Shown here in pieces: positions 3,916-58,903 of a stretch of 64,000 bases of DNA; the stretch's first letter is position 1, and each line of letters opens with the position of its first letter. This stretch comes from Parcubacteria bacterium GBS-2 (lineage in GTDB: Bacteria > Patescibacteriota > Minisyncoccia > Minisyncoccales > GBS-2). Where the stretch lies: positions 56-64,055 of the forward strand of contig LEKP01000001.1 of NCBI GenBank assembly GCA_001443025.1, given 5' to 3'. The notes under the pieces were generated by a model. It was not told where the DNA came from. It saw only the letters and a list, made by a program, of their open reading frames with translations, and did no database searches. The position numbers and the translations under genes are program-made.

Positions 3916-3986
3916 GGGCCTGTAGTTTAATGGGAGAATGCCACATTCGCATTGTGGAGGTGTGGGTTCGATTCCCACCGGGTCCA
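3916..3986 (+). tRNA. tRNA-Ala (anticodon CGC)
   Basis: Acceptor GGGCCTG/CGGGTCC with the G3:U70 Ala identity pair. Anticodon stem CCACA/TGTGG, loop TTCGCAT. T-arm GTGGG-TTCGATT-CCCAC. No encoded CCA. Confidence 0.9.
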
Positions 3987-4205
3987 CTCCTTCGCTAAAG
4001 CTTCGGAGTGTGAACACTCTACGCTAAAGCTTCGGAGTGTGAACACTCTACGCTAAAGCTTCGGAGTGTGAACACTCTACGCTAAAGCTTCGGAGTGTCT
4101 GCACTCCGTAGCCTTGGCGAAGGAGTGTAGCCTTGGCGAAGGAGTGTAGCCTTGGCGAAGGAGTGTAGCCTTGGCGAAGGAGCGAACACCCTTCGCTAAA
4201 GCTTT
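3987..4205. repeat. Compound minisatellite: 4 x 29-bp unit followed by 4 x 19-bp unit
   Basis: CGCTAAAGCTTCGGAGTGTGAACACTCTA starts at 3993, 4022, 4051, 4080. GCCTTGGCGAAGGAGTGTA starts at 4111, 4130, 4149, 4168. The block is bracketed by CCTTCGCTAAAGCTT at both ends. Confidence 0.9.
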
Positions 4206-38215: not shown

Positions 38216-38300
38216 TAAGAAAAATATATTTGGTGAGGTTATAAATTAGGGCAATCGTCGTATTTTGTAACGGGTTGGAGAAGGAGTTTAATGCAAAATT

Positions 38301-38365
38301 TTTACAATGGGCAAGTGCTGGCGCGATAGCACCAGGGAGCGGAGCCCCAGGGGAGAGGGTGTTTG
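38301..38365 (-). ncRNA. Conserved tRNA-Gly 3' trailer element (copy 1)
   Basis: About 80 percent identical to 57475..57538 by hand alignment. Lies directly 3' of tRNA-Gly on the minus strand. Contains the hairpin CTGGTGC-TATC-GCGCCAG, which is pairable only in the minus-strand sense. Confidence 0.4.
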
Positions 38366-38436
38366 AGCGGGAGAGGGGAATCGAACCCCCGTACACGGCT
38401 TGGAAGGCCGTTGCATTACCACTATGCTACTCCCGC
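38366..38436 (-). tRNA. tRNA-Gly (anticodon UCC)
   Basis: Minus strand GCGGGAG..CTCCCGC plus U73. Anticodon stem ACGGC/GCCGT, loop CTTCCAA, T-loop TTCGATT. Confidence 0.9.
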
Positions 38437-38508: not shown

Positions 38509-38514
38509 ATAAAA

Positions 38515-38574
38515 CCAGCAAACCAGAAAACCAGCCAGCCAAACGCCCAGCCAACCAGAAAACCAGCCAACTAA
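38515..38574 (-). repeat. Octamer array B (minus-strand CTGGTTTT sense), predicted 5' leader of the tRNA-Pro/Gly operon
   Basis: CCAG/CCAA on the plus strand at 38515, 38523, 38531, 38539, 38547, 38555, 38563, 38571 (8-bp phase). Ends 6 nt from the tRNA-Pro 5' end. Confidence 0.85.
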
Positions 38575-38577
38575 TTT

Positions 38578-38606
38578 TACTTATCATTTTCTTTTTTTTC
38601 AGTCAA
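38578..38606 (-). promoter_or_regulatory. Candidate promoter of the tRNA-Pro/Gly operon
   Basis: Minus strand TTGACT (38606-38601), 17 bp, TAAGTA (38583-38578). The predicted TSS would place the whole array B in the leader. The -10 is weak. Confidence 0.3.
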
Positions 38607-51869: not shown

Positions 51870-51874
51870 TTTGA

Positions 51875-51926
51875 CCAGAAAACCAGATAACTAGAAAGCC
51901 AGAAAACTAGCCAACCAGCCAACTAT
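51875..51926 (-). repeat. Octamer array C (minus-strand CTGGTTTT sense), predicted 5' leader of the tRNA-Arg/His operon
   Basis: CCAG/CTAG on the plus strand at 51875, 51883, 51891, 51899, 51907, 51915, 51923 (8-bp phase). Ends 5 nt from the tRNA-Arg 5' end. Confidence 0.85.
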
Positions 51927-51930
51927 ACTA

Positions 51931-51958
51931 ATTTTACCAGAAATTTTTAAAAGATCAA
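51931..51958 (-). promoter_or_regulatory. Candidate promoter of the tRNA-Arg/His operon
   Basis: Minus strand TTGATC (51958-51953), 16 bp, TAAAAT (51936-51931). The predicted TSS near 51924 makes array C the leader. Confidence 0.45.
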
Positions 51959-53853: not shown

Positions 53854-54303
53854 ATGGAGAACTTATCAATCGAAAAATTCAATCCCCTGAACCTGAACGA
53901 AATTTTAGAAATAGAGAGGAATGCTTTTGAAAAGAAAGAAACCTTTCCTAAAGAGTACTTTTTAGAAGTTTTTAAAAAGTGGCCGGAGGGATTTTTAGTA
54001 GCAAAGATAAATAAAGAAATTGTTGGTTACGCTATTGGCGAAAAAAATGAAAACTCAGGACTGATTATTTCAGTAGCAGTAAAAAAAGAATGGAGGAGAA
54101 AGGGAATAGGAAGAAAATTAATTGAAAAATTATTAGAAAATTTTAAAAAAGAGGGAATGAAAATGATTTTTTTGCACGTTAGAGAGGAAAACAAAGAAGC
54201 GATTAATTTTTATCAGGCATTGGGTTTTAAAATCATAGAATTGGTTGATAATTATTATTCAAATGGAGAAAATGCATATTTGATGGAAAGGACATTGGGC
54301 TAG
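53854..54303 (+). CDS. rimI: GNAT-family N-acetyltransferase (RimI-like)
   Basis: VAVKKEWRRKGIGRKLIEKLL (acetyl-CoA motif A). Starts 10 nt after the tRNA; AAGGA lies 4 nt before the ATG. Confidence 0.8.
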   Translation: MENLSIEKFNPLNLNEILEIERNAFEKKETFPKEYFLEVFKKWPEGFLVAKINKEIVGYAIGEKNENSGLIISVAVKKEWRRKGIGRKLIEKLLENFKKEGMKMIFLHVREENKEAINFYQALGFKIIELVDNYYSNGENAYLMERTLG

Positions 54304-54345
54304 ATGGTTTTCTGATTATCTGGTTGTTTGGTTTTTTTTGGGTTT
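54300..54345 (+). repeat. Octamer array D (degenerate), between rimI and tRNA-Val
   Basis: CTAGATGGTTTTCTGATTATCTGGTTGTTTGGTTTT. NTGG/CTGA at 54304, 54312, 54320, 54328 (8-bp phase). Confidence 0.6.
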
Positions 54346-54370
54346 CTACCCTATGGAGAGCGGAAAGAAA

Positions 54371-56916: not shown

Positions 56917-56964
56917 CTAGTTATCTGGTTATCTGGTTTTCTAGGGAGTTGGGTTTCTAGTCGG
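56917..56964 (+). repeat. Octamer array E, immediately 3' of tRNA-Leu
   Basis: CTAG/CTGG/TTGG at 56917, 56925, 56933, 56941, 56949, 56957 (8-bp phase). Overlaps the 3' end of the convergent gene 56957..57430. Confidence 0.8.
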
Positions 56965-57430
56965 GTAAGATCTCAACGTAGGTTTTTTTGGCACCAAATT
57001 TTAGGGCTTCAAAATAATTTTCAAACCAGACGTCGAACTGATAATTTCCCTTTCCCCAACTCATCCTATCTTCCACAACAAAAATTTTATCCCCGAAAAT
57101 CTCGGGGATTTTAATTTTAGTTCCAAAAGGAAGAAAGTTGTTTGCAACTATTCCATCTCTGACAGTTTTTCCGGAGGCAGTAATATGAGGATCTTCATCA
57201 GTTTCCCAAGGGGTGGAAGAGTAACCAGTAACTATTGCTAAAATTCTTATTGGTACTTTTTCTGGATTGTTGGGACTTGCTATACCAAAAAGTGAGTTTC
57301 CAAAGGATACAACAATTTTTTCAGGCTCCCTCTGTGAAAAATTAGAATTTTCAGCCTCCAGAGGAAACTCAAATGCAGTTCCTATTAAAACTAAAAAAGA
57401 AATCATCAAAATTTTTAGCCAAATTTTCAT
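56957..57430 (-). CDS. Secreted 3D-domain (MltA/RlpA-like double-psi beta-barrel) protein
   Basis: Signal peptide MKIWLKILMISFLVLIGTAFE. TGYSSTPWETDEDPHITASGKTVRDGIVANNFLPFGTKIKIPEIFGDKIFVVEDRM. Confidence 0.75.
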   Translation of the reverse strand: MKIWLKILMISFLVLIGTAFEFPLEAENSNFSQREPEKIVVSFGNSLFGIASPNNPEKVPIRILAIVTGYSSTPWETDEDPHITASGKTVRDGIVANNFLPFGTKIKIPEIFGDKIFVVEDRMSWGKGNYQFDVWFENYFEALKFGAKKTYVEILPD

Positions 57431-57474
57431 CCCTTTATCATAAAATTTTTTCCCTTAAATGTCAACAAAATGAA

Positions 57475-57538
57475 TTTACAGTAAGCGAGCGCTGGCACGA
57501 TAACACCAGGGAGCGGAGTCCCAGGGGAAGGGTGTCAA
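57475..57538 (-). ncRNA. Conserved tRNA-Gly 3' trailer element (copy 2)
   Basis: Aligns with 38301..38365 (shared core CACCAGGGAGCGGAG(C/T)CCCAGGGGA). The hairpin CTGGTGT-TATC-GTGCCAG needs three G-U pairs, possible only in the minus-strand RNA. Confidence 0.4.
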
Positions 57539-57610
57539 AGCGGGTGAGGGGAGTCGAACCCCCTTCTCAGCCTTGGCAAGGCTGCGTAATAACCGTTATA
57601 CTACACCCGC
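57539..57610 (-). tRNA. tRNA-Gly (anticodon GCC)
   Basis: GCGGGTG..CACCCGC plus U73. Anticodon stem CAGCC/GGCTG, loop TTGCCAA. T-loop TTCGACT. Confidence 0.9.
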
Positions 57611-57617
57611 AAATTTG

Positions 57618-57690
57618 TGCCGGGGGCCAGAATCGAACTGGCTCTTCATGTTTTTCAGACATGCGTGCGCACCAGCTACACTACCCCGGC
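57618..57690 (-). tRNA. tRNA-Phe (anticodon GAA)
   Basis: GCCGGGG..CCCCGGC plus A73. Anticodon stem CATGT/ACATG, loop CTGAAAA. T-arm GCCAG-TTCGATT-CTGGC. Confidence 0.9.
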
Positions 57691-57697
57691 TTTCCCT

Positions 57698-57908
57698 CAA
57701 TAGGGGGAACCGAGGTTCCCCCTCGATTGTCGCTCGTCATTTCGTAAAACGAAATCGACTCGCTGTCACCCCCTCCTAGTAGGTAGAATTTTCTCTTATT
57801 CTACGCGGGGCTTCGGCTCGCTTTCCATAGGGGAGACACCTTCGGTTTCTCCCCTCCATGGCGCTCAGCATTTTGCAAGCAAAATTGCTTCGCTGTCACC
57901 CCTCTTCC
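57698..57908 (-). ncRNA. Two tandem structured units (U1 57698-57776, U2 57825-57908) plus two linker hairpins in the tRNA-Ala/tRNA-Phe spacer
   Basis: Each unit has a bulged outer helix and 8-bp inner helix (hairpin A), then CGCTC, a bulged hairpin B, then TCGCTGTCACCCC. Helices differ between units by compensatory changes. Strand is assigned from the flanking tRNAs only. Confidence 0.45.
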
Positions 57909-57944
57909 TTTAATTCAATCACTCAATCACTTGATTTACTTTTT

Positions 57945-58018
57945 TGGTGGACCTGCGGGGATTTGAACCCCGAACTCGACCATGCCATAGTCGCGTGTTG
58001 CCATTACACCACAGGCCC
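57945..58018 (-). tRNA. tRNA-Ala (anticodon GGC), CCA encoded
   Basis: GGGCCTG..CAGGTCC with G3:U70, A73, CCA. Anticodon stem CGACT/GGTCG, loop ATGGCAT. T-arm GGGGT-TCAAATC-CCCGC region. Confidence 0.85.
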
Positions 58019-58315
58019 ATCTCGAAGTATTGTTTTTTTGATCACTTCGATAATTTGTTTTAGTTCTGTGACCACTTTGCTACAAAAATATTCAATTCTA
58101 CACACTCCATAATAATCTTTCTTTTTAGTAGACCTGTTGAAAGTTCGAGGATCTATTCGTGGTTTGTAGAATCTAGAAAGGGGGATTTGAGTGACCTGGG
58201 ACCAATATCTGTTTAAATAATCAGTATCTTGGTCGGCTCGGCATTGGACAACACAATGAAGCCTCCCCTCTTTTCTAAGTTGTATTACCTCTTCTTTTAG
58301 TGGTAATTTATTCAT
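58004..58315 (-). CDS. Internally deleted paralog of the HTH/LAGLIDADG-like ORF, embedded between two tRNAs; stop codon inside tRNA-Ala
   Basis: MNKLPLKEEVIQLRKEG parallels KALTKEEIKRIVFLRQRG. DYLNRYWSQVTQIP...YYGVCRIEY...IIEVIKK parallels EEVLNFWAKVIGIS...KYGMCRIRV...LADVIKE of ORF 53148..53822. The last 4 codons (GPVV) plus the stop are tRNA-Ala sequence. Confidence 0.4.
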   Translation of the reverse strand: MNKLPLKEEVIQLRKEGRLHCVVQCRADQDTDYLNRYWSQVTQIPLSRFYKPRIDPRTFNRSTKKKDYYGVCRIEYFCSKVVTELKQIIEVIKKTILRDGPVV

Positions 58316-58332
58316 TTAATTTGTTGTTTTTG

Positions 58333-58405
58333 TGCCCTCGGGAGGATTTGAACCTCCACTCTCGAGTTCCGCAAACTCGCGTTTTATCCATTAAACTACG
58401 AGGGC
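58333..58405 (-). tRNA. tRNA-Arg (anticodon GCG)
   Basis: GCCCTCG..CGAGGGC plus A73. Anticodon stem CGAGT/ACTCG, loop TTGCGGA. T-arm GGAGG-TTCAAAT-CCTCC. Confidence 0.85.
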
Positions 58406-58414
58406 ACACTATAT

Positions 58415-58442
58415 ATAATAACAAAAAAATATATTTCATCAA
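58415..58442 (-). promoter_or_regulatory. Candidate promoter of the minus-strand tRNA operon (Arg-ORF-Ala-units-Phe-Gly)
   Basis: Minus strand TTGATG (58442-58437), 16 bp, TATTAT (58420-58415), 9 nt to the tRNA-Arg 5' end. Confidence 0.45.
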
Positions 58443-58493
58443 TATGCCAAAATCCGAGCCTTTATTAAACCTAAAATTATACCTATTTTAACT

Positions 58494-58533
58494 TTTCTTA
58501 CATATTTTTGTCATGGCAAAATTATGTAAGAGA
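58494..58533. repeat. Palindromic element P4 (slightly diverged copy of P1-P3)
   Basis: TTTTCTTACATATTTTTGTCATGGCAAAATTATGTAAGAGA. Confidence 0.65.
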
Positions 58534-58592
58534 TTTTAAGTTAAGGGGCAAGGCTGACCGGCGAAAAGTCAGGTTCTTTAAGTTCAATTAAG

Positions 58593-58811: not shown

Positions 58812-58900
58812 GGAGGAGTGCGGCGAATTTGGTAAGCCACCAGGTTGCTAACCTGTGCCGCCTAAAAAGCGGCTTGTGGGTTCGAATCCCACCTCCTCCG
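58812..58900 (+). tRNA. tRNA-Ser (anticodon GCU), long variable arm
   Basis: GGAGGAG..CTCCTCC plus G73. Anticodon stem CCAGG/CCTGT (one G-U pair), loop TTGCTAA. Variable arm GCCGCCTAAAAAGCGGC. T-arm GTGGG-TTCGAAT-CCCAC. Confidence 0.9.
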
Positions 58901-58903
58901 CTT

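Follow-up and report, generated by a model that had tools for sequence, protein, structure and literature searches.

A two-unit structured RNA composite between tRNA-Ala and tRNA-Phe genes of Parcubacteria bacterium GBS-2 belongs to a previously undescribed family linked to tRNA genes

A stretch of 64,000 nucleotides from Parcubacteria bacterium GBS-2 (contig LEKP01000001.1; hereafter the window) was analyzed with respect to the spacer that separates tRNA-Ala(GGC) from tRNA-Phe(GAA). Both genes were placed on the minus strand by ARAGORN, and the gap between them, from 57691 to 57944, measures 254 nt, whereas the remaining adjacent tRNA pairs in the window are spaced 0-10 nt apart. An earlier reading of this DNA, made from the letters alone and called here the original prediction, had singled out the unusual length of the gap and had described within it two units of about 80 nt with a single architecture. 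The gap is indeed exceptional, and both units were found in the spacer where they had been placed. They are referred to below as unit A (U2 of the original prediction) and unit B (its U1), and their parts are listed in Table 1 with the related features of the window.

Table 1. Features of the tRNA-Ala/tRNA-Phe spacer and related features of the window. R1 is a covariance model of the units; unit A belonged to its seed.
Feature	Position	Strand	Evidence or content
tRNA-Ala(GGC), upstream neighbor, predicted to form one transcription unit with the spacer	57945-58018	-	ARAGORN; Rfam tRNA model, 58.7 bits
A/U-rich linker after tRNA-Ala(GGC)	57905-57944	-	GUGAUUGA twice; 3' purine run AAAGGAAGA leading into unit A
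Unit A	57821-57904	-	R1, 91.9 bits, E 1e-20
Unit A, GGGGUGAC	57902-57895	-	
Unit A, P1 and hairpin 1	57893-57863	-	
Unit A, hairpin 2	57861-57825	-	
Inter-unit linker	57775-57820	-	C-module start CGAGCCGAAGCCCC; hairpin GUAGAAU..AUUCUAC (57804-57783); then CUACUAGG
Unit B	57694-57774	-	R1, 73.7 bits, E 3e-16
Unit B, GGGGUGAC	57772-57765	-	
Unit B, P1 and hairpin 1	57763-57732	-	
Unit B, hairpin 2	57729-57698	-	
tRNA-Phe(GAA), gene directly after the composite	57617-57690	-	ARAGORN; Rfam tRNA model, 63.5 bits
tRNA-Gly(GCC)	57539-57610	-	ARAGORN
Candidate promoter of the tRNA-Arg ... Ala-spacer-Phe-Gly unit	58415-58442	-	Consensus scan: TTGATG-16-TATTAT with upstream TG
Inverted C-module abutting the 3' end of tRNA-Gly(UCC) (38365-38436, minus)	38273-38351	+	R2, 25.1 bits, E 0.0019, filters off
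Inverted C-module remnant abutting the 3' end of tRNA-Gly(GCC)	57474-57538	+	R2, partial and weak (57474-57512, E 0.27)
Remnant GGGUUUCUACCCUAUGGAGAGCGGAAAGAAA directly 5' of tRNA-Val(UAC)	54340-54370	+	Below model thresholds; compared with unit ends such as GGTTTCTCCCCTATGGAGAGCGGA

The two units share one plan, which on the minus strand reads GGGGUGACAGCGA, hairpin 1, GAGCG(A), C(C/A)AU, a 2-nt bulge, the GC-rich hairpin 2 and AU(G/U)G. Their GC content is 0.5-0.6, against 0.33 for the genome. The 13-mer GGGGTGACAGCGA (minus strand) occurs exactly twice in the 64 kb, where 0.18 occurrences were expected. Both direct repeats and both long palindromes of the spacer were recovered by a repeat finder, and the inverted repeats at 57829-57855 and 57702-57723 are real. 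When folding energy was compared with shuffled sequences, the whole spacer gave z-scores of -4.6 on the minus and -5.5 on the plus strand, and the single units on the minus strand folded at -33.0 kcal/mol (unit A, z -4.1) and -33.4 kcal/mol (unit B, z -3.5). Hairpin 2 of unit A consists of the outer helix CCAU/AUGG, a GG bulge and a helix of 12 positions with a single A·G mismatch; the corresponding parts of unit B are CAAU/AUUG, a CG bulge and a helix of 9-10 bp. The minimum-energy fold of unit B reproduced both hairpins, a bulged G and the short helix at the base of hairpin 1 that is called P1 here. The tail of unit B, AGGG followed by AAA (57691-57693), reaches position +1 of tRNA-Phe. No stable fold was found for the linker after tRNA-Ala(GGC) (-2 kcal/mol, z -0.4), and the fold of the inter-unit linker taken alone was not significant (z -0.5). 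Repeats of AAGUGNNNGAGUGA, similar to the former linker, precede the first units in L023 and L028 (related contigs are given L numbers throughout), and the plan of the latter, at 38-46 nt, recurs in A-B composites before tRNA-Ser, Ala, Asp, Met and Arg genes elsewhere.

The original prediction had not recognized the units as a known RNA family and had proposed a comparison with Rfam. No model matched the spacer or its relatives, even at E<=10. A cmscan of 57400-58450 against Rfam 15 at that limit returned only four tRNAs at threshold, with best scores inside the spacer of 14-19 bits against thresholds of 47-100. The whole window at the gathering threshold gave 15 tRNAs only, and a scan of L006, which holds about 10 modules, gave only tRNAs and tRNA look-alikes. 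Searches of the full-text literature turned up no description of such a tRNA-leader element. Structured cis-acting RNAs are known for mRNA leaders and rRNA operons; to our knowledge, none is dedicated to tRNA 5' leaders.

Relatives were found with the downstream gene at 56957-57430, which encodes a 3D-domain protein, as a handle. Syntenic relatives keep the order ComF / tRNA Ser-Arg-Ala-Phe-Gly / 3D-protein, and their Ala-Phe spacer varies in length, from 16 nt in L007, where the element is absent, through 151 nt in L005, 232 nt in L006 and 254 nt in the window, to about 490 nt in L079. A strict sequence pattern found a single match among GTDB species representatives (L008, 5' of tRNA-Lys), and a looser pattern found 70 metagenome loci, two of which (L021 and L037) are apparently chance matches. 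In 556 kb of related metagenome contigs, the covariance model R1 matched 171 times at E<=0.01. Homologous units, the existence of which the original prediction had left to be checked, are therefore abundant in related contigs. The element is present in L005, L006, L079 and the more distant NCBI assembly L081, and in L006 composites also precede the Ser, Arg and Ala genes.

The proposed structure was assessed on an alignment of 65 distinct units (A2), which was made with MAFFT, was not fitted to the structure and was scored with the two-hairpin structure. In this alignment 94.0% of cells were paired and double-sided changes occurred in 21 of 28 pairs (249 cells), so substitutions in the homologues keep the helices of the original prediction. 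None of 500 shuffles reached the observed values on four of five measures, and 35 did so for further pair types. When the 3' partners were shifted by 1-3 columns, 37-52% of cells were paired. RNAalifold, applied to the same alignment, predicted the upper stem of hairpin 1 and, in hairpin 2, the outer helix and the first eight pairs. Among the copies aligned by R1 (119 distinct), 95.5% of cells were paired and 25 of 28 pairs covaried. The compensatory changes first noticed between the two spacer units are real, and the same columns covary across about 120 distinct copies on other contigs. Hairpin 1 contains a conserved C-G pair, a bulged purine above it and two conserved A-U/U-A pairs; these last features were imposed by the search pattern itself on 66 copies. 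Among 53 distinct copies outside that selection, most of those with hairpin 1 retain its conserved features, and GGGGUGA is kept in 49-52 of the 53. In hairpin 2, which is rich in GC, an outer helix of 4 bp is accompanied by a bulge of 2 nt. The family is a real, previously undescribed structured RNA family, and the units of the spacer are its local instance.

One part of the proposed structure had to be redrawn. CGCTC and the TCGC part of TCGCTGTCACCCC, which had been taken as single-stranded, are paired across the base of hairpin 1 (GCGA with GAGC on the minus strand). The resulting helix P1 comprises two Watson-Crick pairs and a tandem G·A/A·G. G12-C76 and C13-G75 are paired, the latter changing to U-A in 9 copies (columns 13/75), and the G·A and A·G between these pairs and the hairpin 1 stem are found in 110 and 83 of 119 copies. 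Columns 14/74, the first G·A, read C-G in six copies, which by eye are Watson-Crick across the site, and these positions at the base of hairpin 1 are therefore paired. The sole segment that stays unpaired is the nearly invariant GGGGUGAC at the 5' start of each unit. A kink-turn was considered for the tandem G·A, but C13-G75 and G12-C76 adjoin it directly, and the covariation leaves no room for the 3-nt bulge that defines a kink-turn, which rules it out. The duplex r(GGCGAGCC)2 reportedly contains a tandem sheared G·A motif in a CGAG context. This motif is matched both by GCGA/GAGC at the base of hairpin 1 and by CGAGCC/GGCGAG in the module described next; it is a building block rather than a family.

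Where a unit is not directly followed by a tRNA gene, a module of 51-93 nt, here called the C-module, usually intervenes. Its closing helix, Pc, reads CGAGCC/GGCGAG or GCGGAGC/GCGGAGC and has central purine·purine pairs. It further contains the invariant sequence CGAAG, a hairpin with an AU-rich top that is not always present, and a 7-bp hairpin that alternates between CUGGCGC/GCGCCAG and CCAGCGC/GCGCUGG. In a MAFFT alignment of 51 C-modules this inner hairpin was 97.5% paired with five of its seven pairs covarying, and the Watson-Crick positions of Pc covaried too. The module ends 0-5 nt from the tRNA +1 position. A C(UUCG)G hairpin had been drawn on the plus strand at 57805-57821; on the transcribed strand this stretch is the conserved C-module junction GCCGAAGC, and no hairpin is present there. 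By sequence comparison, the remnant upstream of tRNA-Val(UAC) in the window combines the 3' arm of a hairpin 2 with the beginning of a C-module.

The original prediction had left the transcribed strand open, and this was settled in favor of the minus strand. We conclude that the minus (tRNA) strand is the RNA strand because G·U exceeds A·C among helix mispairs on the tRNA strand (60:27), the units of the window fold with about 5 kcal/mol more stability on the minus strand than on the plus strand, the conserved G·A tandems would become C·U mismatches on the plus strand, and the copies are co-oriented with tRNA genes. Among the 150 copies that were aligned, 113 have a tRNA gene of the same orientation no more than 500 nt downstream, 21 are inverted, 15 lie less than 500 nt from a contig end, and one, a truncated copy in L030, has no downstream tRNA gene. 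Among the 135 copies with enough flank, 134 adjoin a tRNA gene. On the plus strand, unit A scored just 14 bits with R1, against 91.9 on the minus strand. A function of the plus strand as an antisense to the tRNAs, or a role of the double-stranded DNA as an internal promoter or operator, is improbable in the extreme. C(UUCG)G loops do occur twice on the plus strand, together with the G·T pair to which the original prediction had pointed, the z-score of that strand over the whole spacer is as good as that of the minus strand, and the promoter-like sites GTGACA-18-CAAAAT and TGGAAA-18-TAGAAT lie within the spacer. Against this, in 113 of the 134 copies that could be classified the downstream tRNA gene has the same orientation, and the mispair ratio and the G·A tandems point the same way. 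A promoter or operator would moreover not require covarying hairpins, and both promoter-like sites were rejected on inspection by eye, as neither their spacing nor the key A at position 2 of the -10 hexamer is conserved in other copies.

The tRNA genes served by the element include those for Phe, Ser, Arg, Ala, Lys, Val, Met, Asp, Tyr, Thr, Pro, Trp, Ile and Leu, and in L039 and L067 units lie between tRNA-Ile and tRNA-Ala. The element sits either between two tRNA genes of one orientation or behind a promoter and ahead of a tRNA gene. The last module of a leader ends 1-7 nt before the tRNA +1 position, and B-type units end 1-5 nt from it at 18 other tRNA genes. The linker between the last helix and +1 is variable in length and sequence (A, AA, AAA, GAAAT, CGAC, CGATTAA and others). 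In L006 a promoter-like sequence, TTGACT-17-TAAAAT, ends 16 nt before the first unit, and no further promoter-like site was found on the same strand through the Ser-Arg-Ala-Phe-Gly array. Promoter-like hexamers were seen by eye upstream of the first units at other loci as well.

The reading that we favor, at a probability of roughly one half, is that the spacer is a composite of two copies, one A-type and one B-type, of a modular self-folding RNA element of tRNA leaders and spacers. The element would form a 5' leader or inter-tRNA spacer in a clade of hot-spring Patescibacteria and would be transcribed on the minus strand within a polycistronic pre-tRNA. To judge from established bacterial tRNA maturation, cleavage by RNase P at the tRNA +1 position would free its 3' end, and its 5' end would be set by 3' processing of the preceding tRNA or by the start of transcription. 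RNase P measures from the tRNA body, which would explain why the linker is variable. As a cis-acting leader domain, the element may present the invariant single strand GGGGUGAC and the G·A motifs to a putative factor, and it may give the pre-tRNA 5' flank a fixed thermostable fold that serves processing, stability or transcription processivity. Its spread between tRNA loci would proceed by tandem duplication and gene conversion. Of this reading, the structure, the strand, the membership in the family, the link to tRNA genes and the changes in copy number are established. By class it falls among structured repeat elements co-transcribed in stable-RNA operons, with a reasonable chance of being something more distinctive. 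If it is functional, these tiny-genome thermophiles would add an RNA-based layer of control or protection to tRNA production, and the element would point to a putative RNA-binding factor.

Several points weigh against this reading. Transcription of the element, its release by RNase P and its accumulation are all inferred, and no binding factor, target or regulated step was identified for it. The seed set was collected by a pattern that fixes part of the sequence, and since many of the copies stem from populations that are close relatives, the counts do not represent independent events. The element was not found in the fetched regions of the relatives L007, L083, L085 and L086, and only one of the 15 tRNA genes in the window carries it. 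It is dispensable, and a selfish repeat fits this as well as an accessory function does. A leader role pure and simple does not account for the 21 inverted copies at tRNA-Gly 3' ends. A role in cis is preferred; the evidence does not firmly separate it from a trans-acting RNA or from a repeat that is purely selfish. A tentative alternative, which we regard as possible though on the unlikely side, is a dedicated tRNA-expression device of thermophilic Patescibacteria or a new kind of mobile element that homes to tRNA gene boundaries. Such a device might use GGGGUGAC and the G·A motifs to recruit a protein, or even RNA polymerase, with the antisense copies at tRNA-Gly as a counter-RNA, and might control the processivity, processing order or turnover of pre-tRNA.

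The copy number of the element varies from zero to more than 10 among close relatives. L001, which is 98% identical, has the same spacer, but hairpin 1 of unit A is exchanged for UCCCCCCAGAU..AUCUGGGGGGA (L001:373-398, against 57888-57866 in the window). Since a near-identical hairpin occurs in a unit upstream of the tRNA-Lys gene in L060, the exchange looks like, and probably is, gene conversion between copies. Modules may also be missing or fused: a unit in L018 lacks hairpin 1, a unit in L005 lacks hairpin 2, and A/B hybrids exist. Duplications that span the tRNA-Gly junction can take in the first bases of antisense tRNA-Gly. Missing or fused modules and duplications of this kind speak for tandem duplication, unequal exchange and gene conversion, and against cut-and-paste transposition.

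These observations bear on the view that the units are selfish repeats at the DNA level, akin to REP/BIME or MITE elements, that have settled in the one non-coding niche left tolerant in a compact genome, with hairpins that serve DNA mobilization or are merely tolerated and with no RNA function for the host. We consider this unlikely. It would account for presence, absence and copy number differing between close relatives, for the shuffling, loss and fusion of modules, for duplications across the tRNA-Gly junction and for the 15 of 150 copies within 500 nt of a contig end, as expected of repeats that break assemblies. It does not account for the conservation of strand-specific purine·purine pairs, the excess of G·U over A·C or the almost strict orientation toward tRNA genes, and the invariant single-stranded GGGGUGAC would be superfluous in an element made only of hairpins. 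No terminal inverted repeats were found flanking the composite, no target duplication was found when the filled site was compared with the diverged empty site of L007, and no transposase was seen near the spacer among the called genes; on the first two findings a MITE was rejected. REPs are palindromes of 20-40 nt that mostly occur as inverted pairs, lie dispersed on the 3' side of protein genes and are associated with a RAYT transposase. Like REP/BIME and REPIN sequences, the element is a multi-copy, GC-rich, intergenic and co-transcribed hairpin structure with a mosaic of modules, turnover of copy number and compensatory changes. Unlike them, it is 80 nt long and combines two distinct hairpins with G·A motifs and a single strand that is invariant, and its units are directly rather than invertedly repeated, oriented to tRNA genes and adjoining them, so membership was rejected. 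No RAYT (IS200/IS605-type) transposase was seen among the called genes of the 64-kb window and the short loci. If the element is selfish after all, it would be an unusually clear bacterial repeat that tracks tRNA gene boundaries; such tracking is so far known mainly from eukaryotic retrotransposons.

All 21 inverted copies face the 3' end of a tRNA-Gly gene, at three different loci with GCC, UCC and CCC isoacceptors. In inverted C-modules the purine·purine pairs of Pc are replaced by Watson-Crick pairs in 10 of 12 cases, against 0 of 39 direct ones (Fisher p = 1e-9), and these pairs covary (CCUGCC/GGCAGG, UUCGCC/GGCGAA, UUUGCC/GGCAAA). The hairpin 1 G·A is replaced in 4 of 16 inverted and 2 of 58 direct copies (p = 0.018). 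The simplest reading of these sequences is that inverted copies, too, would be transcribed from the tRNA strand, as trailers that are the antisense of the module. Only Watson-Crick pairs would keep the fold in such a trailer. Remnants of this kind adjoin both terminal tRNA-Gly genes of the window. The one next to tRNA-Gly(GCC) has the hairpin CUGGCAC-GAUA-ACACCAG followed by GGGAGCGGAG..GGGGAAGGGUGU and by eye resembles the inverted modules beside tRNA-Gly in L005, L006 and L029. A duplex of leader and trailer bracketing the operon, in the style of rRNA operons, was rejected, as hairpin 1 of the inverted units mismatches the direct units of their own operon. The boxB-boxA antitermination signals and RNase III processing stems of rRNA operons resemble the element in having a variable hairpin beside a conserved single strand in leaders and spacers of stable-RNA operons; they differ in that the element has no boxA-like sequence, its leader-trailer complementarity is unsupported, and it is optional, with a copy number that varies.

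Inverted copies in tRNA-Gly trailers would also supply natural antisense partners to a trans-acting small RNA, matured by tRNA processing with a 3' end made by RNase P, in which 80-230 nt of RNA titrate a protein or pair through GGGGUGAC. We find this explanation doubtful, and quite unlikely as it stands. The precise junctions with tRNA +1, the unpaired invariant motif with conserved G·A motifs of a protein-binding kind and the high dose that multiple copies would mean all speak for it, and a precedent exists in Escherichia coli, where the 3'ETS-leuZ and metZ-metW spacer RNAs are said to act as sponges. However, no site complementary to the 13-mer was found in the 64-kb window, no partner protein was identified, and the inverted-unit hairpin 1 mismatches noted above stand against pairing with direct units of the same operon. 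The 3'ETS-leuZ RNA and the internal spacer of metZ-metW-metV resemble the element as non-tRNA segments of polycistronic tRNA transcripts that are bounded by processing sites and may have their own function, and the element likewise lies between processing sites inside what would be a tRNA primary transcript. Those RNAs are short, confined to single loci and weakly structured, and they pair with small RNAs through Hfq; the element, unlike them, is multi-copy, modular and strongly structured, lies 5' of many tRNAs and has no known pairing target.

A riboswitch-like or attenuator switch over read-through into the tRNA, in which the 5' G-run and the 5' arm of hairpin 2 compete for the C-run, is very improbable. 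The core AGGGGUGA is able to pair with the 3' arm UCUCCCCU of hairpin 2, and the lengths of G-run and C-run correlate (4/4 in 44 copies, 5/5 in 22, other in 31), but this correlation could reflect linkage within subfamilies. The tRNA begins 1-7 nt past the structure and so leaves no room for an expression platform, units are stacked in variable numbers, and no terminator was found after them. An intrinsic terminator or attenuator was likewise rejected, with no terminator-like site on either strand of the spacer or in the L006 array. T-box leader RNAs (RF00230) share with the element a structured leader, G·A-type motifs, a conserved strand containing GGGUG and a functional link to tRNA. The resemblance (GGGUG...CGCG) was not borne out: RF00230 gave no match, the element precedes tRNA genes rather than aminoacyl-tRNA synthetase or amino-acid genes, and it has neither a terminator/antiterminator pair nor a specifier loop. 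A self-cleaving ribozyme that makes the tRNA 5' end was rejected as well, there being no Rfam ribozyme match and both the distance to +1 and the linker being variable.

A small protein gene within the units was also considered and rejected. By eye, CCAUGG of A-type units becomes CAAUCG in B-type units, and the hairpin 1 exchange in L001 deletes the upstream AUG. Small open reading frames (ORFs) with the Shine-Dalgarno-like AGGAGG...GUG are not conserved among the A-type, B-type and L001 copies, in which the variation is compensatory in helices and not codon-like. In practical terms, the element breaks metagenome assemblies at tRNA loci, and gene callers miscall it as small ORFs. Called ORFs of 63 and 84 amino acids overlie inverted units in L005 (2785-2976) and L079 (3718-3972) and are probably artefacts of annotation to which the element has given rise.

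In L078, where a 16S rRNA 3' end is present as well, a unit was found downstream of tRNA-Ile. At L078:880-930 this end reads GGATCACTCATTAAATT, and the usual CCUCC anti-Shine-Dalgarno sequence is absent there, a sign of an insertion or of a 3' end that is unusual. Pairing of the G-rich 5' strand of the element with the 16S 3' end was rejected, as it fits GGUGA only against the sole recovered end (GGAUCACUCAUUAAA, L078).

Other observations concern the surroundings of the spacer. The gap between tRNA-Arg and tRNA-Ala is 0-1 nt in L005 and L007 and 692 nt in L079 and L080, and in the window it is filled by a 103-amino-acid ORF (58004-58315, minus strand) that lies between tRNA-Arg(GCG) and tRNA-Ala(GGC) and overlaps the latter by 15 nt. 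This ORF was considered as a homing-endonuclease fragment and rejected, with no Pfam match and no similarity to the LAGLIDADG ORF of L006. LAGLIDADG-type ORFs are located between tRNA-Cys and rbfA in L006 (3634-4413) and L081 (4555-5391) and are not present in the window. tRNA-Ser(GCU), at 58812-58901, is on the plus strand and thus inverted relative to the ComF/Ser-Arg-Ala-Phe-Gly order of L005, L006, L007 and L079. A long palindrome, TCTTACATAATTTTGCCATGACAAAAATATGTAAGA, upstream of tRNA-Arg(GCG) at about 58505-58545, recurs beside inverted units in L029 and L066.

Directly 3' of tRNA-Ala(CGC), at 3985-4182, two tandem arrays were observed, with repeats of 29 nt x3.9 (CACTCTACGCTAAAGCTTCGGAGTGTGAA) and 19 nt x3.9 (GTAGCCTTGGCGAAGGAGT). 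Each repeat could by eye form a small hairpin, and the sequence is unrelated to the units of the spacer. G/U-rich leaders made of CUGGUU/UGGCUGG-like repeats precede the tRNA-Pro/Gly operon (38510-38585, minus strand), the tRNA-Arg(UCU)/His operon (51870-51935, minus strand) and tRNA-Val (54300-54345, plus strand), and the same motif was found upstream of units in L046 and L064.

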